Part shown: one piece after another, positions 40,512 to 51,313 of the stretch
Layout: each line of letters opens with the position of its first letter
Position numbering within the stretch: position 1 is the first letter of the stretch
Assembly (NCBI GenBank): GCA_039805905.1
Contig: JBDIVM010000006.1
Span: forward strand, 120,827 to 184,826
DNA length: 64,000 bases
Reading direction: 5' to 3'
Source: Limibaculum sp.
GTDB taxonomy: Bacteria > Pseudomonadota > Alphaproteobacteria > Rhodobacterales > Rhodobacteraceae
The notes under the pieces: generated by a model
Seen by the model: only the letters and a program-made list of their open reading frames with translations
What the model was told of the DNA's origin: nothing
Databases searched by the model: none
Position numbers and translations under genes: made by a program

Positions 40512-40582
40512 AACACCGGCGCACGGCTCTCAGCCGTCGGCATTGAATGCGGCGGGCATCGGCAGCTGATGGGGAGGAATGC

Positions 40583-41293
40583 ATGGGCAAGACCCTGGAC
40601 CTCAAGCCGGTGGATGGCTCCTTCAGCCTGAAGGAGCACATCTATGACGTGCTCAAGACCAGCATCATGGATCTGGACATCTACGAGCCCGACACCAACC
40701 TGCGCATGGACGAACGGACTCTGGCGGAGCGGCTCGGAATCAGCCGCACGCCGATCCGCGAGGCGATCATGCGGCTCGAGCAGGAGGGATTCGTCGAGAT
40801 CGCACCGCGCCGGGGCGTCTACATCAAGCGCAAGAGCCTCGACGAGATCCTCGAGATGATCACCGTCTGGGCGGCGCTCGAGAGCATGGCCGCCCGCATC
40901 GCCTGCGGGCGCGCGAGCGACGTCGAGATCGCCCGGCTCCGCCGGATCGCCGCACCATTCAACAAGGACAAGGCCAGGGCGCAGATCAGCGAGTACTCCG
41001 AGGCGAACATCGAATTCCACCTCTGCGTGCTCGGCCTCTCAGGGTGCCGGATGCTGCAGGACATTGCCAACGGGCTGTTCACCCACCTGAAGGCGGTGCG
41101 CCGCAAGGCGCTGCAGGACACCGCCCGTGCGGACCGTTCGGTGGTCGACCACATGAACATCATCCAGGCGATCGAGGAGCGGAATGCCGACCTCGCCGCC
41201 GAACTCGTCCGTGAGCATACGTTCCGGCTGCACGACTATATCCGCCGGAGCTGGAAGATGATCGTCGGCCCTGCCCAGGCGGGCGAGGCCTGA
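40583..41293 (+). CDS. GntR-family (FCD domain) transcriptional regulator
   Basis: [18 protein letters not shown]; C-terminal ANIEFH...DHMNII. Confidence 0.92.
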
Positions 41294-41325: not shown

Positions 41326-43065
41326 ATGGCAGTGGCACCGAGCATGGCGCCCGAACCGACCGCCGAGGCAACGCAGGAACTGACCGATGGGTTCCATCTG
41401 GTCATCGATGCGCTGAAGCTGAACGGCGTGAAGACGATCTATCATGTGCCCGGGATTCCGGTGACGGATCTCGGCCGCATGGCCCAGGCCGAGGGCATCC
41501 GGGTGATCTCGTTCCGACACGAGTCGAACGCGGGCAATGCCGCGGCCATCGCGGGCTACCTGACGAGGAAGCCGGGCATCTGCCTCACCGTGTCCGCGCC
41601 GGGGTTCCTGAACGGCCTCGTCTCGCTCGCCCATGCCACGACCAACTGCTGGCCGATGATCCTGATTTCCGGCTCCTCCGAGCGCGAGATCGTCGACCTG
41701 CAGAAGGGCGACTACGAGGAGATGGACCAGCTCGCCATCGCCAAGCCGCTCTGCAAGGCCGCCTACCGGATCCTGAAGGCCGAGGACATCGGCACTGGTG
41801 TGGCACGGGCCATCCGCGCCGCGGTCTCGGGCCGCCCGGGCGGGGTCTATCTCGACCTGCCGGCCAGCCTGCTCGGCCAGGTCATGGACGCGGCCGAGGG
41901 CGCAAAGTCGCTGGTCAAGGTCGTGGACCCCGCCCCGGCGCAGTTCCCGGCGCCGGCCGCCATCGAGCGGGTCATCGAGGTGCTGAAGAGCGCGAAGAAG
42001 CCGCTCATCATCCTCGGCAAGGGCGCCGCCTACGCCCAGTGCGACGACAGCGTGCGCCGCTTCGTCGAGACCTCGGGCATCCCCTATATCGCGATGTCGA
42101 TGGCAAAGGGTCTTCTCCCCGATGACCATCCGCAATACGCGGGCGCCGCGCGCTCGCTGGTGCTGGCCGAGTCGGATGTGGTCATGCTGATCGGGGCACG
42201 GCTCAACTGGCTCCTGTCGCACGGACGCGGCAAGCAGTGGGGCAGGCCCCACTCCAAGACTTTCGTCCACATCGACATCGACCCGAAGGAGATGGACTCG
42301 AACCAGCCCGTCGCCGCGCCGCTGGTGGGCGACATCGAGTCGTGCCTTGGCGCCCTGCTCGACAGGATGGGGCCGGGCTGGGCGAGGCCGCCCGCCGAAT
42401 GGACGGGCATGGTGCGCGAGAAGGCCGCGGCGAATGTCGCGAAGATGGCCCCGAAGCTCATGAACAACAACGTGCCGATGGATTTCCACGGCGCGCTGGG
42501 CCGGCTGAAGAAGATCATCGCCGATCACCCGGACGCGATCCTGGTGAACGAAGGTGCCAACACGCTCGACTTCGCCCGCTCGGTCATCGACATGGCGAAG
42601 CCCCGGAAGCGGCTCGATGTCGGGACATGGGGGGTGATGGGCATCGGAATGGGCAGCGCAATCGCCGCCGCGATCGAGACCGGCCAGAATGTCATTGCGG
42701 TCGAGGGCGACTCGGCCTTCGGCTTCTCCGGCATGGAGGTCGAGACCATATGCCGCTACGGCCTCCCGGTCTGCGTCGTGATCTTCAACAACTCCGGCAT
42801 CTACCGGGGCACCGACACCGACCCGACGGGGCGCGACCCGGGCACCACGGTGTTCGTCAGGGAATCCAGGTATCACATGATGATGGAGGCCTTCGGCGGT
42901 ATCGGGGTCGAGGCCCGCTCGCCGGACGACCTCGAACGGGCGGTGCGCGACGCCATCGCGTCCCGCAGGCCGACCCTGGTCAACGCCATCATCGACCCGC
43001 AGGCCGGGACCGAATCCGGGCGGATCGGCAATCTCAATCCGCAGAGTGCCGTCAAGAAGAAGTGA
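41326..43065 (+). CDS. oxc: Oxalyl-CoA decarboxylase
   Basis: [55 protein letters not shown]. Confidence 0.96.
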
Positions 43066-43126: not shown

Positions 43127-44401
43127 ATGAAAGCTCTGGAAGGCGTCCGGATCCTCGACTTCACCCATGTCCAGTCGGGCCCGACCTGCACCCAGCTCCT
43201 CGCCTGGCTCGGCGCCGACGTCATCAAGGTCGAGCGGCCGGGCGAAGGCGACGCGACTCGCAAGCAGCTTGTGGACGTGCCGGGGGCCGACAGCCTCTAT
43301 TTCACCATGCTGAACCACAACAAGCGGTCGATCGAGCTGAACTCGAAGAACGAGACCGGCAAGGAGGTCCTGACCCGGCTGGTCAGGGCCTGCGACGTGC
43401 TGGTCGAGAACTTCGCCCCGGGCGCCCTCGACCGCATGGGCTTCGGCTGGGAGGTGATCCAGAAGCTCAACCCGCGCATGATCATGGCCTCGGTAAAGGG
43501 CTTCGGCCCGGGCAAGTACGAGGACTGCAAGGTCTATGAGAATGTCGCGCAGTGCGCCGGCGGCTCTGCCTCGACCACTGGCTTCCGCGACGGCCTGCCG
43601 CTGGTCACCGGCGCCCAGATCGGCGATTCCGGCACCGGGCTCCACCTGGCGCTTGGCATCGTCGCTGCGCTGTTCCAGCGCGAGAAGACGGGCCGCGGCC
43701 AGAAGGTGCTGGCGGCGATGCAGGACGGTGTCCTGAACCTCTGCCGCGTCAAGCTGCGCGACCAGCAAAGGCTGGAGAAGGGACCGCTGACCGAGTACTC
43801 CCAGTTTGGCGAGGGCATTCCCTTCGGAGACGCGGTGCCCCGCGCCGGCAACGACTCGGGCGGCGGCCAGCCCGGCCGCATCCTGAAGTGCAAGGGCTGG
43901 GAGACCGATCCCAACGCCTACACCTACTTCATCACCCAGGCTGCGGTCTGGGAGAAGGTCTGCGACGTGATCGGCAGGCCCGAGTGGAAGACCGACCCGA
44001 AATTTGCCACCCCAAAGGCGCGGTTGCCGCATCTGAACGAGATATTCAGCGAAATCGAGAAATGGACCATGACCAAGTCCAAGTTCGAGGTCATGGACAT
44101 CTGCAATCCGCTCGATATTCCCGTCGGCCCGATCCTCAGCATGAAGGAGATCGCGGCGGACGAGGGGCTGCGGGCAACCGGCACCATCGTCGAGGTGGAC
44201 CATCCTGAACGCGGGCCCTACCTCAGCGTCGGCATGCCGATCAAGATGTCGGACAGCCCGGCCGAGGTCGTCCGCTCGCCGCTCCTCGGCGAGCACACGG
44301 TCGAGATCCTCTCAGGCGTTCTCGGCTACTCGGCCGAGGACATCGACCGGATCGCTGCCTCGGGCGCAGTCGGCGACATCCGGCGCGCCGCGGCGGAATG
44401 A
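43127..44401 (+). CDS. frc: Formyl-CoA:oxalate CoA-transferase
   Basis: [36 protein letters not shown]. Confidence 0.96.
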
Positions 44402-44495: not shown

Positions 44496-45416
44496 ATGCG
44501 CCTCATCGTCAACGGACAGCAGGCCTTCGGCAAGGCGGCACTCGAGAAGATCCTCGAGGCCGGCAGGGACGAGGTGGTCGGCGTCTACACCGCACCCGAC
44601 AAGGACGGCCGCCCCGTCGACCCGCTGAAGGAGGCCGCGCTCGCCCACGGCCTGCCGGTGTTCCAGCCGGCGAACTACAAGGACGGCGAGGCCCTCGACC
44701 AGATGCGCGCGCTGGACGCCGACCTGATGGTCATGGCCTACATGATCATCTTCGTGCCCGAGGAGGCGCGGAACGTGCCCAGGCTCGGCTCGATCTGCTT
44801 CCACCCGTCGCTCCTGCCGCTGCACCGCGGCCCGTCCTCGATCAACTGGCCGATCATCTGGGGTGCGACGAAGACGGGCTTCTCGTGGTTCTACCCGACC
44901 GACGGGCTCGACGAGGGCGACATCCTGATGCAGTGGGAGTGCCCGATCGGCCCGGACGAGACGCTGGGGGATGTCTATTTCAAGAAGATCTTCCCCGCCG
45001 GCGTCGACTCCGTCCTCACGGTCTGCGATCTCTTCCGCGCCGGCAACCCGCCGCGCGCGCCGCAGGACGAGTCGAAGGCGACCTACGAGAGCTGGTGCCG
45101 CAAGCGGGACGCCGCGATCGACTGGGCAAGGCCGGCAGCCGATGTCTACAACCTGATCCGGGGCTGCAATCCGCAGCCCGGCGCCTGGACGACGCTCGGC
45201 GGGGCCGAGGTCCAGGTCTTCGACAGCGCCCGCGCGGGCGAGGGCCCCGGCACGCCCGGCGAGGTCGCATCCGTGTCCGCGGATGGCGTGGTTGTGCAGT
45301 CGGGCGGCGGGCGAATACTTCTAAAACGTGTCCGGCCCGCGGGCGGGGGCAAGGTGCCCGCCGCGGAATGGGCTTCGGAGGCAGGGGTCGCCGCGGGCAC
45401 GCGGCTCGGCTCCTGA
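44496..45416 (+). CDS. Formyltransferase-family protein resembling the N-terminal domain of 10-formyl-THF dehydrogenase (ALDH1L1)
   Basis: [55 protein letters not shown]. Confidence 0.8.
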
Positions 45417-45448: not shown

Positions 45449-47116
45449 ATGTCGGACATCGAAATCGCCCGCAACGCAAACAAGAAGCCGATCCAGGAGA
45501 TCGGGGCAAAGCTGGGAATCCCCGGCGAGCATCTCCTGCCGTTCGGCCATGACAAGGCCAAGGTCTCGGCCGATTTCATTCAGTCAATTCAGGGCAACAA
45601 GACCGGCAACCTGATCCTGGTCACTGCGATGACACCGACCCCGGCGGGAGAGGGCAAGACCACCACTACCGTCGGCCTTGGCGACGGGCTCAATGCGATC
45701 GGCAAGAAGGCCGTGGTGTGCATCCGCGAGGCCTCGCTCGGGCCGAACTTCGGCATGAAGGGCGGCGCGGCAGGCGGCGGTTATGCCCAGGTGGTGCCGA
45801 TGGAGGATATGAACCTCCACTTTACCGGCGACTTCCATGCGGTCACCTCGGCGCACAACCTGCTCTCGGCGATGATCGACAACCACATCTACTGGGGCAA
45901 TGCACTCGACATTGACACCCGCCGGGTAGTCTGGCGCCGGGTGATGGACATGAACGACCGGGCGCTGCGCGAGATCGTCTGCTCGCTCGGCGGTGTGGCC
46001 AACGGCTTTCCGCGCGAAGCCGGCTTCGACATCACGGTGGCCTCCGAGGTGATGGCGATACTCTGCCTTTCCACCGACCTGAAGGACCTGCAGCAGCGCT
46101 TGGGCGACATCATCGTGGCCTACCGCCGCGATCGCTCGCCCGTCACCTGCCGAGACGTCAAGGCCGACGGGGCGATGGCGGTGCTCCTGAAGGACGCGCT
46201 GCAGCCGAACCTCGTGCAGACGCTCGAGAACAGCCCTGCCTTCGTCCATGGCGGCCCGTTCGCCAACATCGCCCATGGCTGCAACTCGGTCATGGCCACC
46301 ACGACGGCGCTGAAGCTCGCCGACTATGTGGTGACCGAGGCCGGGTTCGGCGCCGACCTCGGAGCCGAGAAGTTCTTCGACATCAAGTGCCGCATGGCCG
46401 GGCTGAAGCCGAAGGCGGTGGTGATCGTGGCGACCATCCGGGCGCTCAAGATGCATGGCGGGGTCAAGAAGGAGGATCTCGGCAAGGGGAACGTCGAGGC
46501 GCTGCAGAAGGGCTGCGCCAATCTCGGCCGCCACCTCGAGAACCTGAAGCAGTTCGGCGTTCCGGCCATCGTCGCGATCAACCACTTCGTTGCCGACACC
46601 GACGCCGAGATCGACGCGCTGAAGAGCTATGTGACGTCCCAAGGCGCCGACGCCGTGTTGTGTCAGCATTGGGCGAAGGGCTCTGAGGGGATCAAGGACC
46701 TTGCCCACAAGGTGGTCAGGCTGGTCGAGGCCAACACCTCGCAGTTCGCACCGCTATACCCGGACGAGATGGGCCTGTTCCAGAAGATCGAGACCATCGC
46801 CAAGCGCATCTACCGCGCCGACGAGGTAGTGGCCGACAAGAAGATCCGCGACCAGCTGAAGGAATGGGAGGAGGCCGGTTTTGCCGGGCTGCCGGTCTGC
46901 ATGGCCAAGACCCAGTATTCCTTCACCACCGACCCGAGCCGCCGCGGCGCGCCAACCGGTCACAGTCTGCCGGTGCGCGAGGTCCGGCTCTCGGCCGGCG
47001 CCGGCTTCGTCGTGGTGATCTGCGGCGAGATCATGACCATGCCGGGCCTGCCCAGAGTTCCGGCCGCCGAGACCATCTGCCTGAACGAGTCAGGCCAGAT
47101 CGAGGGCCTGTTCTAG
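45449..47116 (+). CDS. fhs: Formate--tetrahydrofolate ligase
   Basis: [50 protein letters not shown]. Confidence 0.97.
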
Positions 47117-47127
47117 GGAGATAGACC

Positions 47128-47988
47128 ATGTTGATCGCCCGGATCATGGTTCCCGTTCGCGGCGACGGCAAGGGAGAGAACGTCCTCTCCCACGCCGCCG
47201 CGGTCGCCCGGCGCCACAATGCCCATATCGAGGCAGTGCACTGCCGGGCCCGGCCGCAGGACATGATCCCCTACGGGGTCGTGGTCCCGCGCGCGCTCAG
47301 GGAGCAGATCGCGGCCCAGGCGGTCGAGCTTGCAGATGCCGAGGAGGCCAGGCTGCAGGGGATGTTCCGCGACCTGGTAGCGCGGCTCGGCATCGAACTG
47401 GTCTCGGACGGCATCCCGTCCCGCGACCGCCCCACCGCAAGCTGGCGCGAGGAGCAGGGCAAGCAGATGGACGTGATCCGGCGCCACGGCCGCCTCGCCG
47501 ACCTGGTGGCGGTGGCCAAGCCTGACCGCGACCGAAATCTCGGCCTCAACACCCTGAAGGCAGCGCTGTTCCATACCGGGCGGCCGGTGCTGGTCTGCCC
47601 GCCGGCGGACCGGGTGCCCGACCAGATCGGCCGGAGGGTCGCGATTGCCTGGAACGGCTCGACCGAGGCCGCCAGGGCGGTCGCGCTCGCACTGCCGCTG
47701 ATCCAGGCGGCAGACGAGGTGGTGGTGCTCGACGGTGGCGGCGAGGACGGTGCCGGCGGCGAGGAACTCATGCACTACCTCGCGATTCGCGGGATCGCGG
47801 CCCGCCGCGAGCGGATCGACGCGCAGAACCATCCCGGCCGGGTGATCCTGCAGGCCGCGGCGGCGGCCGGGGCGGATATCCTGGTGATGGGCGCCTACAG
47901 CCGCAGCCGCGAGCAGGAAACCGTGTTCGGAGGGGCAACCCAGCACGTGGTCGACCATATGACCATGCCGGTCGTGATGGTGCACTGA
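47128..47988 (+). CDS. Tandem-domain universal stress protein
   Basis: IAWNGSTEAARA, LVMGAYSRSR, GGATQHV. Confidence 0.88.
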   Translation: MLIARIMVPVRGDGKGENVLSHAAAVARRHNAHIEAVHCRARPQDMIPYGVVVPRALREQIAAQAVELADAEEARLQGMFRDLVARLGIELVSDGIPSRDRPTASWREEQGKQMDVIRRHGRLADLVAVAKPDRDRNLGLNTLKAALFHTGRPVLVCPPADRVPDQIGRRVAIAWNGSTEAARAVALALPLIQAADEVVVLDGGGEDGAGGEELMHYLAIRGIAARRERIDAQNHPGRVILQAAAAAGADILVMGAYSRSREQETVFGGATQHVVDHMTMPVVMVH

Positions 47989-48058
47989 AGCGGTTTTTTC
48001 CGTGCCGTGGCGGCGATCTCTGTTGATTTTTCACCCGCCGCTTATAGGATCAGGTGTG

Positions 48059-48070
48059 TGGTATACCACG
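48059..48070. promoter_or_regulatory. Putative GntR operator (copy 2)
   Basis: (G)TGGTATACCACG just downstream of a candidate TTGATT-N16-TAGGAT promoter (48023-48050) for tctC. Confidence 0.75.
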
Positions 48071-48209
48071 GGAAGGGGCTGCAAACGAAAAGAAGCAGAA
48101 CGCGGTCGGCAGTTCGATACTGCTGAACAAGACCCGCGGCAGGAGGAAGGGAACATCGGGTGTTCCGCCCCATCGCTGGGGAGCGTGCCATAAACCATGG
48201 GAGGATGAG

Positions 48210-49178
48210 ATGGCATTCACACGTCGATTGATGATGGCGGCAAGCGCTGCCGTAATCGGCTTCGCCGGGCTGACCGGCGTCGCACAGGCCTGGGAGCCGA
48301 CGAAGCCGATCGACTTCGTCATCATGGCCGGCCCGGGTGGCGGCGCGGACCAGATCGCGCGCTTCATCCAGTCTGTCGTCGAGAAGAACGGCATGTCGCC
48401 GCGTCCGCTGGTGCCGAACAACAAGGGCGGCGGGTCGGGCGCCGAGGCGCTGATCGCGCTGAAGGGTGCATCCGATCCGGATCACACGATCCTGGTGACG
48501 CTGAACTCGTTCTTCACCACGCCGCTGCGCCAGCCGAACCTCGGCATCGACATCATGACCTTCACGCCCATCCAGATGATGGGGGTCGATCCCTTCGTCC
48601 TCTGGGTCCACAAGGACTCGGGCATCACCAGCTTCGAGCAGTGGGTCGATACGGTGAAGGCCGAGGGCGGCAACTACGTGATGGGCGGAACCGGCAAGGG
48701 TCAGGAAGACTCGATCGTGATCGCCTGGCTCGAGAAGAACTACGACATCAAGGTCAAGTACATCCCCTACAAGGGCGGCGGCGCCGTGGCCAAGGATCTC
48801 GCCGGCAAGCAGGTGGGCGCGACGGTGAACAATCCGGCCGAGGCTCGCGGCTTCTACCAGTCCGGCGATGTCGTTCCGCTGATCGCGTTCTCGGACCAGC
48901 GGCTGCCGAACCTGCCGGACGTGCGCACGGTGAAGGAACTCGGCAAGGACTTCAGCTACTACAACCAGCGTGCCATCGTGGGCGCCCCCGGCATGTCGGC
49001 TGATGCCGCTGCCTTCTACCAGGATCTCTTCGGCAAGGTTGCGGCCTCGGCCGAGTGGCAGGGCTATCTCAGCTCCGAGAGCCTCGAGGCGCTGACGCTC
49101 GATCCCGAGCAGCAGAAGGCCTACTGGGCGACCCAGGTCGAGCGGCACAAGGAGCTGTTCAAGGACATGGGCGAGTAA
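48210..49178 (+). CDS. tctC: Tripartite tricarboxylate transporter substrate-binding protein (Bug/TctC)
   Basis: Signal peptide; GPGGGAD..AR, NKGGGSG, PYKGGG. Confidence 0.9.
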   Translation: MAFTRRLMMAASAAVIGFAGLTGVAQAWEPTKPIDFVIMAGPGGGADQIARFIQSVVEKNGMSPRPLVPNNKGGGSGAEALIALKGASDPDHTILVTLNSFFTTPLRQPNLGIDIMTFTPIQMMGVDPFVLWVHKDSGITSFEQWVDTVKAEGGNYVMGGTGKGQEDSIVIAWLEKNYDIKVKYIPYKGGGAVAKDLAGKQVGATVNNPAEARGFYQSGDVVPLIAFSDQRLPNLPDVRTVKELGKDFSYYNQRAIVGAPGMSADAAAFYQDLFGKVAASAEWQGYLSSESLEALTLDPEQQKAYWATQVERHKELFKDMGE

Positions 49179-49207
49179 GGACAGCCAATCCAGGGGAGGG
49201 CCGGCAG

Positions 49208-49732
49208 ATGCGTCGCGCTGAGATCATCACGGCCGGGGTGCTGGCCCTCTTTTCGCTCTACGTCATGTGGAAGGCCGGCCAGCCGGCATGGGAGGGTGTC
49301 GCCAGATGGAGCAACATCACCTATGTCAGCGGTGAAGGCCCGGGATCCGGCTTCTGGCCGTTCTGGCTGGCTGCCGTCATGCTGGGCTGCACGGTCTGGA
49401 TCGCCGTGAACTGGTGGCGGCGGGCCTCCCCGCTGTCGCGCTCCGGCGAGCGGTTCCTCGACGATCACGGCATAGGCATGCTGATCAAGGTCGGGGGCGG
49501 GGTCCTGGCGCTGATCGGGCTCAACCACATCGTCGGGATGTACGGCGCGATGGCGCTGTTCCTGTTCTACTACCTCTATTTCCTCGGCCGGCACCGGATC
49601 GGCCTGTCGCTCGCGATCGCGCTCGGGGCGCCGGTCGCCACGTTCTTCTTCTTCGATGTCGCGATGCGGATCGTGCTGCCGAAGGGCTATCTCGAGCCGC
49701 TCTTCATCCCGCTCTACGACATCTTCCTCTGA
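49208..49732 (+). CDS. tctB: Tripartite tricarboxylate transporter small membrane subunit
   Basis: Four TM segments; GPGSGFWP, LPKG; between tctC and tctA. Confidence 0.85.
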   Translation: MRRAEIITAGVLALFSLYVMWKAGQPAWEGVARWSNITYVSGEGPGSGFWPFWLAAVMLGCTVWIAVNWWRRASPLSRSGERFLDDHGIGMLIKVGGGVLALIGLNHIVGMYGAMALFLFYYLYFLGRHRIGLSLAIALGAPVATFFFFDVAMRIVLPKGYLEPLFIPLYDIFL

Positions 49733-49795
49733 TCCAGGGCTTCGTTCCGGGGCCGGCATGCGCAATCCGCCCGCCGATCCCGCCGGGAGACAAAG

Positions 49796-51313
49796 ATGGA
49801 CATCCTCTCGCATCTGATCGATGGCATCCTGACCGCGTTCCAGCCGCTGAACCTGATGATAGTGATCATCGGGGTCACCATCGGCCTGATCATCGGCGCG
49901 ATGCCGGGGCTCGGGTCGGTCAACGGGGTCGCGATCCTGCTGCCGGCCACCTTCCTGGTGCCGCCGACGACGGCGATGATCTTCCTCGCCGCGATCTATT
50001 ACGGGGCGATGTATGGCGGCGCGATCTCGTCGATCACGCTCGGGATACCGGGAGCATCGACGGCGGTTGCCACGGTATTCGACGGTCGGCCGCTGGCGCT
50101 CCAGGGCAAGGCGGACAAGGCGCTGGTCGCGGCGGCGGTCGCCTCCTGCGTCGGCGGCACGGTGGCCAACATCCTGTTTACGGCCTTCGCTCCGCCACTG
50201 GCGCATGTTGCGCTGAGCTTCGGCCCGCCCGAGATCTTCGCGCTGATGCTGCTCGCCTTCGCCACCTTCATCGGCCTCGGCGGCGACGACATCCCGAAGA
50301 CCATCCTCTCGATCTGCCTCGGCCTCGTCCTCGCTACGGTGGGCTTCGACGAGATCTCCGGGGCGCCCCGTCTGGTCTTCTTCGAGATCACCGGCTTCAT
50401 GCACGGCATCAACTTCCTGGTTCTGGCGATCGGGGTCTATGGCATCGGCGAGATGCTGTGGACGATCAACGCGTCCCGCAACGACGTCTCGATGACCTCC
50501 GTCGAGATCGGCGCGCGCCGGATCGTGCTCGCGGCGAAGGAATCCTTCACCGCCTGGCGCGGCATGGCGATCGGCTCCTCGCTCGGGTTCTTCGTCGGCG
50601 TGCTGCCGGCGGCCGGTGCCACGCCCGGCGCGCTGATGGCCTACGGCCTGACCAAGATGACGGCGAAGAACCCGCAGAACTTCGGCAAGGGGGCGCTCAA
50701 CGGCGTGACCGCACCGGAATCCGCGAACAACTCGGCGGCCGCCGGCTCGATGCTGCCGATGATCACGCTCGGCATCCCCGGCTCGCCCACCACTGCAATC
50801 CTGCTCGGCGGCATGGTGATCTGGGGCCTGCAGCCGGGACCGCGGCTCTTCGCTGAGCAGCCCGAGTTCGTCTGGCCCCTGATCGGCTCGCTCTACGTCT
50901 CGAACCTGATGGCGATGGTGATGAACCTGGCGTTCATTCCGATGTTCCTGTGGATGCTGCGGATGCCGTTCACGATCCTCGCGCCGATGATCTTCGTGCT
51001 CTCGGTGGTTGGCGGCTATGCCGCGACGCAGGACATGCACGACGTCTGGCTGATGCTGATTTTCGGGATCGGCGCCTTCTTCCTCAGGATGCTCGACTAC
51101 CCCTTGGCGCCCGCGGTGCTCGCGATCGTGCTGGGCCCGCAGACCGAGGAGTCGCTGCGCCAGTCGCTGCTGATGAGTTCGGGCGATCCCTTGATCTTCG
51201 TCAGCCGGCCGATCGCCGGTCCGATCACCGTGATCGCGCTCATCCTGATCTTCCTGCCCCTCGTCGGCGTCATCCGGCGACGGCTCGGAGCAGGGACGAG
51301 GACGGCGACCTGA
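49796..51313 (+). CDS. tctA: Tripartite tricarboxylate transporter large membrane subunit
   Basis: GAMPGLG, YYGAMYGG, APESANN, LGIPGSPTTA. Confidence 0.95.
   Translation: MDILSHLIDGILTAFQPLNLMIVIIGVTIGLIIGAMPGLGSVNGVAILLPATFLVPPTTAMIFLAAIYYGAMYGGAISSITLGIPGASTAVATVFDGRPLALQGKADKALVAAAVASCVGGTVANILFTAFAPPLAHVALSFGPPEIFALMLLAFATFIGLGGDDIPKTILSICLGLVLATVGFDEISGAPRLVFFEITGFMHGINFLVLAIGVYGIGEMLWTINASRNDVSMTSVEIGARRIVLAAKESFTAWRGMAIGSSLGFFVGVLPAAGATPGALMAYGLTKMTAKNPQNFGKGALNGVTAPESANNSAAAGSMLPMITLGIPGSPTTAILLGGMVIWGLQPGPRLFAEQPEFVWPLIGSLYVSNLMAMVMNLAFIPMFLWMLRMPFTILAPMIFVLSVVGGYAATQDMHDVWLMLIFGIGAFFLRMLDYPLAPAVLAIVLGPQTEESLRQSLLMSSGDPLIFVSRPIAGPITVIALILIFLPLVGVIRRRLGAGTRTAT

Follow-up and report, generated by a model that had tools for sequence, protein, structure and literature searches.

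Formate is activated in the cell in two forms, as formyl-CoA and as 10-formyl-tetrahydrofolate (10-formyl-THF), and we know of no enzyme of primary metabolism that joins them. Folate-dependent formyl transfer to a thiol does have precedents. The N-terminal domain of 10-formyl-THF dehydrogenase (ALDH1L1, also FDH) moves the formyl group onto a 4'-phosphopantetheine thiol (PMC6802093; PMC2788200). In HypX, which takes part in the synthesis of the [NiFe]-hydrogenase CO ligand, CoA stands in for the 4'-phosphopantetheine arm, and the N-domain is proposed to formylate CoA from 10-formyl-THF (PMC6802093). LctF, from the lactacystin pathway of Streptomyces lactacystinicus, transfers formyl from 10-formyl-THF to CoA in vitro, giving formyl-CoA (PMC11730586, 2025). 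An earlier sequence-only reading of the DNA described here knew of no characterised enzyme with such an activity; LctF, and the proposal for HypX, make that statement outdated.

The window analysed is a 64,000-nucleotide stretch of Limibaculum sp. DNA. It contains a stop-free ORF encoding a 306-aa two-domain formyltransferase (FT), set within the gene block gntR-oxc-frc-FT-fhs-usp-tctCBA:

40547 to 41293, + strand: GntR/FCD-family regulator, the first gene of the block (Pfam GntR and FCD)
41326 to 43065, + strand: oxc, oxalyl-CoA decarboxylase (TIGR03254, 970.8 bits against a cut-off of 739.4)
43127 to 44401, + strand: frc, formyl-CoA:oxalate CoA-transferase (TIGR03253, 710.9 bits against a cut-off of 504.2)
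44496 to 45416, + strand: FT, stand-alone, of the ALDH1L1 N-domain type, candidate formyl-CoA/10-formyl-THF formyltransferase (Pfam Formyl_trans_N and Formyl_trans_C, 88.2 and 75.7 bits)
45449 to 47116, + strand: fhs, formate-tetrahydrofolate ligase (PF01268, 897.6 bits; NF010030, 939 bits)
47128 to 47988, + strand: universal stress protein, tandem Usp (Pfam Usp)
48054 to 51313, + strand: tctC-tctB-tctA, tripartite tricarboxylate-type transporter (Pfam TctC, TctB and TctA), probably the importer of the substrate

The profile scores identify a true oxc, a true frc and an fhs, and FT lies between the latter two, as the earlier reading had it. The product of Oxc is formyl-CoA, released together with CO2. 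A Shine-Dalgarno sequence, GGGAGGA, is found about 7 nt 5' of the FT start, and FT and fhs are 32 nt apart, with no terminator on the + strand between them. The frc reading frame is open from a GTG at 43046, and the alignment to the model begins at the ATG at 43127. FT consists of the two formyltransferase domains only, and does not have the fused ACP-like and ALDH domains of full-length ALDH1L1. The claim that no ACP or ALDH gene lies nearby was found to hold for the window's whole contig, where a search for PP-binding and Aldedh genes returned none.

The sequence of FT puts it in the ALDH1L1 N-domain (FDH 'hydrolase') clade, as a folate-dependent formyltransferase that stands alone. Its best sequence match in the PDB is the ALDH1L1 N-domain at 207.6 bits, whereas the best Fmt match scores 147.1; the identities are 39% and 32-34%, respectively. 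Matches to this closest relative (PDB 1S3I, 2BW0, 4QPD and 7RLU) score 205-208 bits. In a tree of 151 rows, the FT family, the ALDH1L1 N-domains and other bacterial proteins of about 310 aa form one clade of 95 rows (SH-aLRT 99), while ArnA and the Fmt clade, which includes the Fmt of E. coli as well as that of this genome, fall outside it. A set of signature residues (Q8, D42, P104, H110, S114, N117, F132, Y161 and E198) is common to FT and ALDH1L1 and absent in Fmt. The AF2 model of FT has a pLDDT of 95.1, and its best Foldseek match is 4qpd (E 3e-35). Comparison of structures gives TM-scores of 0.93 with Fmt and 0.87 with the FDH domain; the fold offers no distinction between the two and favors Fmt if anything, so this comparison informs only on the confidence of the model. 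The earlier reading had placed FT nearer to ALDH1L1 than to Fmt on the basis of motifs, and both the scores and the tree agree. The motifs it quoted are all present in the translation of FT, and the ALDH1L1 strings it gave agree with the rat sequence except for a single residue, I for V in VVGVFTIPDKDG.

The active site tells the same two relatives apart. His103, Ser105 and Asp139 of FT occupy the positions of the catalytic His106, Ser108 and Asp142 of the ALDH1L1 N-domain and are invariant in an alignment of 109 FT relatives, as is the folate signature HPSLLPxHRG. The Asn of the N-x-H motif, invariant in 20/20 Fmt sequences, is replaced in FT by Cys101, confirming the earlier observation that this Asn is absent while the catalytic His and Asp are kept. 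The position is Cys in 83 and Gln in 25 of the 109 FT members, and Ile or Cys in ALDH1L1. The two subdomains, the His/Ser/Asp triad and the loss of the Asn are thus common to FT and the ALDH1L1 N-domain. Cys101 as a catalytic nucleophile, forming a formyl-enzyme thioester, is ruled out by the 25 members with Gln. Seven basic positions (K13, K45, K164, R181, R278, R280 and K286) are conserved in the FT family and not in ALDH1L1, and may hint at a phosphorylated, nucleotide-bearing acceptor.

FT differs from ALDH1L1 in those basic residues and in its setting, being bacterial, stand-alone and operonic with frc and fhs. Where ALDH1L1 uses a tethered 4'-phosphopantetheine, FT presumably takes free CoA as acceptor. 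LctF is likewise a stand-alone Fmt-like formyltransferase, and its reaction, 10-formyl-THF + CoA to formyl-CoA, is the one that we propose for FT; the likeness drawn here is one of reaction. LctF, by contrast, serves secondary metabolism: it supplies the loading module of a PKS, runs in a single direction there, and is not linked to frc, oxc or fhs. The HypX N-domain (PDB 6J0P) has the formyltransferase fold with His and Asp, but is distant from FT (43 bits, 18-20% identity, TM 0.65) and carries Asp80 in place of the triad Ser. HypX is also fused to an enoyl-CoA-hydratase-like decarbonylase and holds its CoA permanently bound.

The FT locus was surveyed around 80 close homologues, with the frc side readable in 77 loci and the fhs side in 79. 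Directly upstream of FT and on the same strand, frc was present in 76/77 loci, at a median gap of 70 nt; fhs followed directly downstream in 69/79, at a median gap of 50 nt. The other parts of the block also recur among the 80: a gntR homologue lies upstream in most, at least 18 have usp behind fhs or FT, and tctCBA is downstream in 31-38. The alphaproteobacteria were also sampled evenly, with 401 genomes, of which about 8% (32/401) carry the FT family, scattered over many families. True Frc occurred in 28 of these 32 genomes versus 10 of the 369 non-carriers, and in two of the four FT genomes without it, the locus was cut by a contig end. Nine FT genes that do not adjoin frc are in genomes carrying Frc elsewhere. 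Two of the three outcomes that the sequence-only reading had named as refuting it were thus looked for and not seen: FT falls in the ALDH1L1-N clade, apart from Fmt and ArnA, and its homologues are very strongly linked to frc, by adjacency as well as by co-occurrence. A full-text literature search turned up no publication describing an oxc-frc-formyltransferase-fhs cluster, and a paper on the CORE cycle had no bearing on it.

More distant members (49-64% identity) were taken from an even class-wide sample. Of these 29, 16 still adjoin frc, while about a third (10 to 12 of 29) lie in unrelated contexts. Away from frc the neighbors are mixed, including a pterin-4a-carbinolamine dehydratase, 2OG oxygenases, RecQ and a Rieske oxygenase, and we found no common theme among the class-sample loci without frc. 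Among bacteria, the relatives closest to animal ALDH1L1 belong to Chloroflexota and Vicinamibacterales; we found no frc beside them, and a single acceptor across the wider clade is therefore not required.

The TPP enzyme encoded upstream of FT alternates. Of the loci, 32 have Oxc in this place and 30 another enzyme, the latter only 23-29% identical to Oxc, with a 2-hydroxyacyl-CoA lyase as its best PDB match. True Oxc was missing from all five genomes with the alternative enzyme that we checked; where no TPP gene adjoined the FT locus, Oxc was found elsewhere in the genome (5/5). No genome with frc-FT-fhs was seen to lack a formyl-CoA-forming TPP enzyme, as all ten checked had either Oxc or the alternative. 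This alternation between Oxc and a 2-hydroxyacyl-CoA-lyase-like enzyme suggests that formyl-CoA is the theme common to the FT loci.

The clade of FT, its catalytic residues, the gene linkage and the co-occurrence are observations; from gene context and relatives, we infer CoA as the acceptor of FT, as well as the direction and physiological role of its reaction. We propose, with a probability of roughly 55%, that FT is a reversible formyl-CoA/10-formyl-THF formyltransferase able to work in either direction: 10-formyl-THF + CoA-SH <-> THF + formyl-CoA. A free thiol would be the simplest acceptor, as there is no carrier-protein or ALDH gene on the contig, and the second substrate would most likely be the thiol of free coenzyme A. 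By analogy with ALDH1L1 and HypX, Asp139 would take the proton from the thiol, the thiolate would attack the N10-formyl carbon, and the tetrahedral intermediate would be stabilized by His103, itself positioned by Ser105. The chemistry that the earlier reading ascribed to the ALDH1L1 domain, formyl transfer to a thiol, is backed by PMC6802093 and PMC2788200.

FT would in this way connect the formyl-CoA pool of Oxc and Frc with the 10-formyl-THF pool made by Fhs, and the likeliest physiological role is that of a two-way buffer. Fhs and FT together would form an ATP-driven path from formate to formyl-CoA that primes and replenishes the Frc/Oxc cycle. The cycle by itself would gain no thioester, and would lose it through hydrolysis or the withdrawal of oxalyl-CoA. 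When formyl-CoA is in surplus, FT could hand the formyl group to THF and release CoA. A plain transfer from formyl-CoA to THF would, as a counterpoint, deprive the Frc/Oxc cycle of its CoA donor. A PanE/ApbA-family reductase gene occurs in 11 of the 80 FT loci, and the oxalyl-CoA reductase of Methylobacterium is a member of that family. Such a reductase, by draining oxalyl-CoA, would create a need for a net supply of formyl-CoA; no close copy of its gene was found in the genome from which the window comes. It is also conceivable, though we hold it only tentatively, that Fhs and FT make up a natural two-step, ATP-driven 'formyl-CoA synthetase' (formate to 10-formyl-THF to formyl-CoA), which with Frc would achieve net synthesis of oxalyl-CoA with formate and THF acting catalytically. 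In the 30 loci with the 2-hydroxyacyl-CoA-lyase-like enzyme, the pair could then supply formyl-CoA for the formation or cleavage of C-C bonds, much as in synthetic formyl-CoA elongation pathways.

Several other functions would fit parts of these data. FT could be a CoA-independent 10-formyl-THF hydrolase that functionally replaces PurU, freeing THF and formate when a formate-flooded Fhs locks the folate pool as 10-formyl-THF; we consider this unlikely. PurU also strips the formyl group from 10-formyl-THF, although it has a different architecture, ACT plus Formyl_trans_N without the Formyl_trans_C domain of FT. The PurU model TIGR00655 matched neither FT nor anything in its genome, which is without PurU because its only three Formyl_trans_N genes are purN, fmt and FT. 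Across the 401 sampled genomes PurU was present in 0/32 with FT versus 85/369 others, and two within-family contrasts (f65, f70) follow the same trend. PurU is, however, scarce in Fhs genomes generally (22/181 versus 63/220), and among those the contrast narrows to 0/29 versus 22/152. Taken by itself, the ALDH1L1 N-domain goes by the name of 'hydrolase' (PMC2788200), yet this activity requires millimolar thiol in vitro according to the same paper, which cites Krupenko 1995, so the reaction is in truth formyl transfer to a thiol. Co-transcription of a hydrolase with Fhs would mean an ATP-wasting futile cycle, and the hydrolase reading leaves unexplained both the adjacency to frc and the near-restriction of FT to Frc genomes. 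That FT formylates some other acceptor, be it the holo form of a carrier protein, a small thiol such as pantetheine, or an amine metabolite, with an indirect link to frc, strikes us as rather unlikely. The homologues in mixed contexts and the Chloroflexota and Vicinamibacterales relatives away from frc speak for it, as do the basic residues K45, K164 and K286, which are common to Fmt too. Set against these, the conserved neighbors are frc, fhs, the TPP enzyme, gntR, usp and tctCBA, with no carrier-protein, amine-pathway or sugar-nucleotide genes conserved among them, and most homologues outside the frc context are still in genomes with true Frc.

Two further alternatives are less probable still. 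As the closest known relative of the ALDH1L1 N-domain, FT could be the first part of a split 10-formyl-THF dehydrogenase that works with a separate carrier and ALDH to oxidize formyl to CO2. The genome does carry eight ALDH-family and three PP-binding genes, but all of these are off the contig of FT, and no ACP or ALDH gene is conserved across the 80 related loci, making this very improbable. The least probable alternative, and one largely refuted, is a second methionyl-tRNA formyltransferase, the name that homologues of FT bear in public annotation. Fmt has the same two-domain fold (TM 0.93). FT nonetheless scores 142.6 bits against the fmt equivalog TIGR00460, under the cut-off of 201.5, lacks the Asn that is invariant in Fmt and stands apart from Fmt in the tree, and a canonical def-fmt pair is present elsewhere in the same genome; on these grounds the Fmt annotation is rejected.

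The formyl link that FT probably makes between CoA and folate would be new to bacterial oxalate and one-carbon metabolism. If the formyl-CoA/10-formyl-THF reading is correct, thousands of genes labelled 'methionyl-tRNA formyltransferase' need a corrected name. Synthetic C1 pathways now make do with formyl phosphate or with acyl-CoA synthetases that perform poorly; FT would let them reach formyl-CoA from formate by way of folate, and in an ATP-efficient manner. For the bacteria themselves, a widespread enzyme with this activity would account for the starting and refilling of the Frc/Oxc cycle. It would also suggest that thiol formylation was the ancestral role of the domain that was later fused into animal ALDH1L1.

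The best-supported reading of FT (also P0001), a stand-alone formyltransferase of 306 aa, is that it catalyses a reversible formyl transfer, 10-formyl-THF + CoA <-> THF + formyl-CoA. Its gene lies in a block bounded upstream by mutS on the opposite strand.

Genes of the FT block (Pfam/NCBIfam annotation)
40547-41293, gntR/FCD regulator
41326-43065, oxc (TIGR03254, 971 bits)
43127-44401, frc (TIGR03253, 711 bits)
44496-45416, + strand, FT, between frc and fhs
45449-47116, fhs (ATG at 45449)
47128-47988, usp
48054-51313, tctC, tctB and tctA, directly after the operon

A ribosome-binding site, GGGAGGA, stands about 7 nt 5' of the FT ORF. The frc stop and the FT start are 94 nt apart, the FT end and the fhs ATG 32 nt, and no + strand terminator was found between the three genes. 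A Pfam scan of P0001 found Formyl_trans_N (residues 4-161) and Formyl_trans_C (202-294) and no further domain.

FT belongs with the N-terminal domains of ALDH1L1 (10-formyl-THF dehydrogenase, FDH). These supply the top six matches of a PDB sequence search (207.6-193.6 bits), ahead of Fmt (at most 147), ArnA (at most 100) and HypX (43). By BLASTP, FT shares 39% of its residues with the rat ALDH1L1 N-domain, against 32-34% with Fmt and 25% with ArnA. Our 151-row tree (IQ-TREE quick, LG+C20, E. coli ArnA as outgroup) combined members of the FT family, together with their contexts, and representatives at 50% identity taken from a search of 1.8 billion proteins; its references were the ALDH1L1 N-domain of rat, the Fmt of E. 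coli and that of the window's genome. FT, the ALDH1L1 N-domains and other bacterial proteins of about 310 aa form one clade in it (SH-aLRT 99), with the Fmt sequences in a group apart. In an alignment of 109 FT family members, four ALDH1L1 N-domains and 20 Fmt, His103, Ser105 and Asp139 (His106, Ser108 and Asp142 of ALDH1L1) are invariant, as is the folate signature HPSLLPxHRG. The Asn of the N-x-H motif is present in 20/20 Fmt and is replaced in the FT family by C (83), Q (25) or L (1). The FT family agrees with ALDH1L1 at ten positions where Fmt differs. The AF2 model of FT (pLDDT 95.1) gave FDH-N the best E-value at TM 0.87 and Fmt TM 0.93. Fold does not separate the two, so the membership of FT rests on sequence. 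The sequence-only reading had placed FT nearer to ALDH1L1 than to Fmt, without the Asn and with the catalytic His and Asp kept, and searches, tree and alignment all bear it out; the motifs it quoted are all in P0001, and the ALDH1L1 strings it gave are consistent with the rat sequence from the PDB search. Homologues of FT are mis-annotated in public records.

Genomic evidence ties FT strongly to formyl-CoA metabolism. A one-genome-per-species scan found 493 relatives. We took the best 80 of them (67-91% identity; from Paracoccaceae, Hyphomicrobiaceae, Rhodospirillales and other groups) together with 10 kb of flanking sequence. Directly upstream of FT on the same strand is frc in 76 of 77 readable loci (median gap 70 nt; frc genes 72-92% identical), and fhs follows FT immediately in 69 of 79 (median gap 50 nt). 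Where fhs was not adjacent, it was found elsewhere in 5/5 genomes checked. We also searched an even sample of 401 alphaproteobacterial genomes, in which FT matches are bimodal: the family at 44-64% identity (E <=1e-79) and Fmt paralogues at about 35% (E ~1e-41).

Co-occurrence in 401 genomes (32 with FT; 369 others)
True Frc (TIGR03253): 28/32 with FT; 10/369 others
Fhs (PF01268): 29/32 with FT; 152/369 others
PurU (TIGR00655): 0/32 with FT; 85/369 others

Enrichment with frc, a check proposed along with the original claim, is thus seen in loci and genomes alike. For true Frc in the genome sample it amounts to an odds ratio of 251; the naive Fisher test gives p = 1.6e-30, which overstates the case, as shared ancestry makes the genomes non-independent. 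Four FT genomes lack true Frc: two are interrupted by contig ends (G143, G375), and the other two carry Frc-like paralogues (396-443 bits). Among 29 more distant FT members (49-64% identity), 16 adjoin frc, three adjoin fhs only, and the rest have mixed contexts, nine of these in genomes with true Frc elsewhere.

The thiamine-diphosphate (TPP) enzyme upstream of frc is less constant. Among the best 80 relatives it is true Oxc in 32 loci and an alternative enzyme in 30 (L043:6933-8666; also L040, L010, L059, L065 and 25 more), with none adjacent in four. The alternative enzyme, about 577 aa and 23-29% identical to Oxc, occupies the position held in the window by oxc. Its best PDB match is an actinobacterial 2-hydroxyacyl-CoA lyase (7PT3, 270 bits), and its top NCBIfam matches, PRK05858 and an actinobacterial HACL model, both fall under cut-off; no NCBIfam model is passed. 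It may be an oxalyl-CoA decarboxylase not orthologous to Oxc, or it may cleave a different 2-hydroxyacyl-CoA. True Oxc was found nowhere in 5/5 genomes checked with the alternative enzyme, and elsewhere in the genome in 5/5 checked without an adjacent TPP gene. We therefore infer that the constant set would be a predicted formyl-CoA-making enzyme with Frc, FT and Fhs, a reading that depends on the resemblance between the alternative enzyme and 2-hydroxyacyl-CoA lyases.

Other genes recur around the operon in the best 80 loci. usp is present in at least 18 and tctCBA in 31-38; tctC-tctB-tctA likely takes up the pathway's substrate, standing in for OxlT. Ten loci have upstream a NuoF-like subunit (Complex1_51K, 2Fe-2S, 4Fe-4S) of the type characteristic of NAD-linked formate dehydrogenases (e.g. 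L022:40-1851); in the window's genome, a formate dehydrogenase alpha subunit is encoded on a different contig (C7:195346-197397). SucC/SucD-like CoA-ligase subunit genes lie upstream in 7-8 (e.g. L039:5574-6491, L063:1762-3090) and could encode malate thiokinase or an ADP-forming acid-CoA ligase of the same pathway. Two small conserved ORFs separate frc from FT, chiefly where the TPP enzyme is the alternative one (L025:9549-9964, L036:1556-1965, L055:6727-7135, L023:6602-7057, L020:1357-1563, L015:3157-3381, L064:9663-9908): a 58-aa hydrophobic peptide (MSAVLIIAAFYMACASLILWLGFFHPRQPRL...) and a single-pass protein of about 66 aa ending in ...ECDxxGGVWSSETRxCxxSDSPLAGM. Both are absent from the short frc-FT gap of the window. 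An 'uncultured Flavobacteriales' MAG contig (L059, CAYFYY010000084.1) carries an alphaproteobacterial-type operon whose FT is 70% identical and, in the tree, nests within alphaproteobacterial sequences; a misbinned contig seems likelier here than gene transfer.

The chemistry has precedents. With 10-formyl-THF as donor and His106/Ser108/Asp142 as catalytic residues, the ALDH1L1 N-domain formylates the 4'-phosphopantetheine thiol of its carrier domain (summary in PMC6802093). The 'hydrolase' reaction of the N-domain requires millimolar 2-mercaptoethanol (PMC2788200, citing Krupenko 1995), which makes the domain in essence a thiol formyltransferase. The sequence-only reading knew of no characterised enzyme moving formyl between CoA and THF. 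That statement is outdated: the formyltransferase LctF (stand-alone, 32% identity to Fmt) makes formyl-CoA from 10-formyl-THF and CoA, as seen by LC-MS (PMC11730586, 2025), and formylation of CoA has been proposed for the HypX N-domain (PMC6802093). Full-text literature searches found no paper on an oxc-frc-FT-fhs cluster.

Other functions for FT must be weighed. FT is not Fmt, and a second Fmt is the least probable of these: FT scores only 142.6 bits against the NCBIfam fmt equivalog (cut-off 201.5), and the Formyl_trans_N genes of the genome number just three, FT, a purN adjoining purM, and a canonical fmt (NLHASLLPRWRG) immediately 3' of def. Membership in a split ALDH1L1-like dehydrogenase would suit the clade and is very unlikely; the earlier observation that no carrier-protein or ALDH gene lay nearby extends to the window's whole contig. 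Transfer to an acceptor other than CoA seems improbable.

CoA is the probable acceptor on three grounds: the contig encodes no carrier protein, CoA bears the same thiol, and LctF and HypX offer precedent. Seven basic positions kept in the FT family and absent from ALDH1L1 would fit a nucleotide-bearing acceptor. The case for CoA is limited to the frc-linked, mainly alphaproteobacterial subclade, since no frc was found beside the Chloroflexota/Vicinamibacterales proteins closest to animal ALDH1L1. In the closest Chloroflexota stand-alone relatives (L128:5489-6945, L129:328-1784) a PNPOx-like gene (pyridoxamine-phosphate-oxidase fold) precedes instead.

The foremost alternative, itself unlikely, is a PurU-like hydrolase. 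PurU and the FT family were found together in none of the 401 genomes, and PurU was not found in the window's own genome; the strongest case for net deformylation by FT rests on this exclusion. Fhs genomes in general have PurU less often (22/181, versus 63/220 without Fhs), which accounts for part of the pattern; within Fhs genomes, PurU occurs in 0/29 with FT and 22/152 others.

Formyl transfer between THF and CoA would give FT a place in the Frc/Oxc cycle. That cycle neither gains nor loses a thioester, and therefore needs a starter, plus a refill whenever formyl-CoA is hydrolysed or oxalyl-CoA withdrawn. One such withdrawal could be made by a PanE/ApbA-family (ketopantoate-reductase-like) protein, a candidate oxalyl-CoA reductase encoded a few kb from the operon in 11/80 loci (L004:18724-19890, L061:17689-18771 and nine others); nothing close to it was found in the window's genome, where the best match reaches 32-45% over parts. 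The oxalyl-CoA reductase of Methylobacterium belongs to this family. As to physiological direction, which we infer, Fhs and FT together would make formyl-CoA from formate at a cost of one ATP, and this route fits the conserved core frc-FT-fhs, whichever TPP enzyme accompanies it. Flow from formyl-CoA to THF is probably somewhat favoured thermodynamically, judging by group-transfer potentials; it would salvage CoA and carbon, yet alone would drain the cycle. Because the chemistry has precedents, what would be new about FT is its role in primary metabolism.
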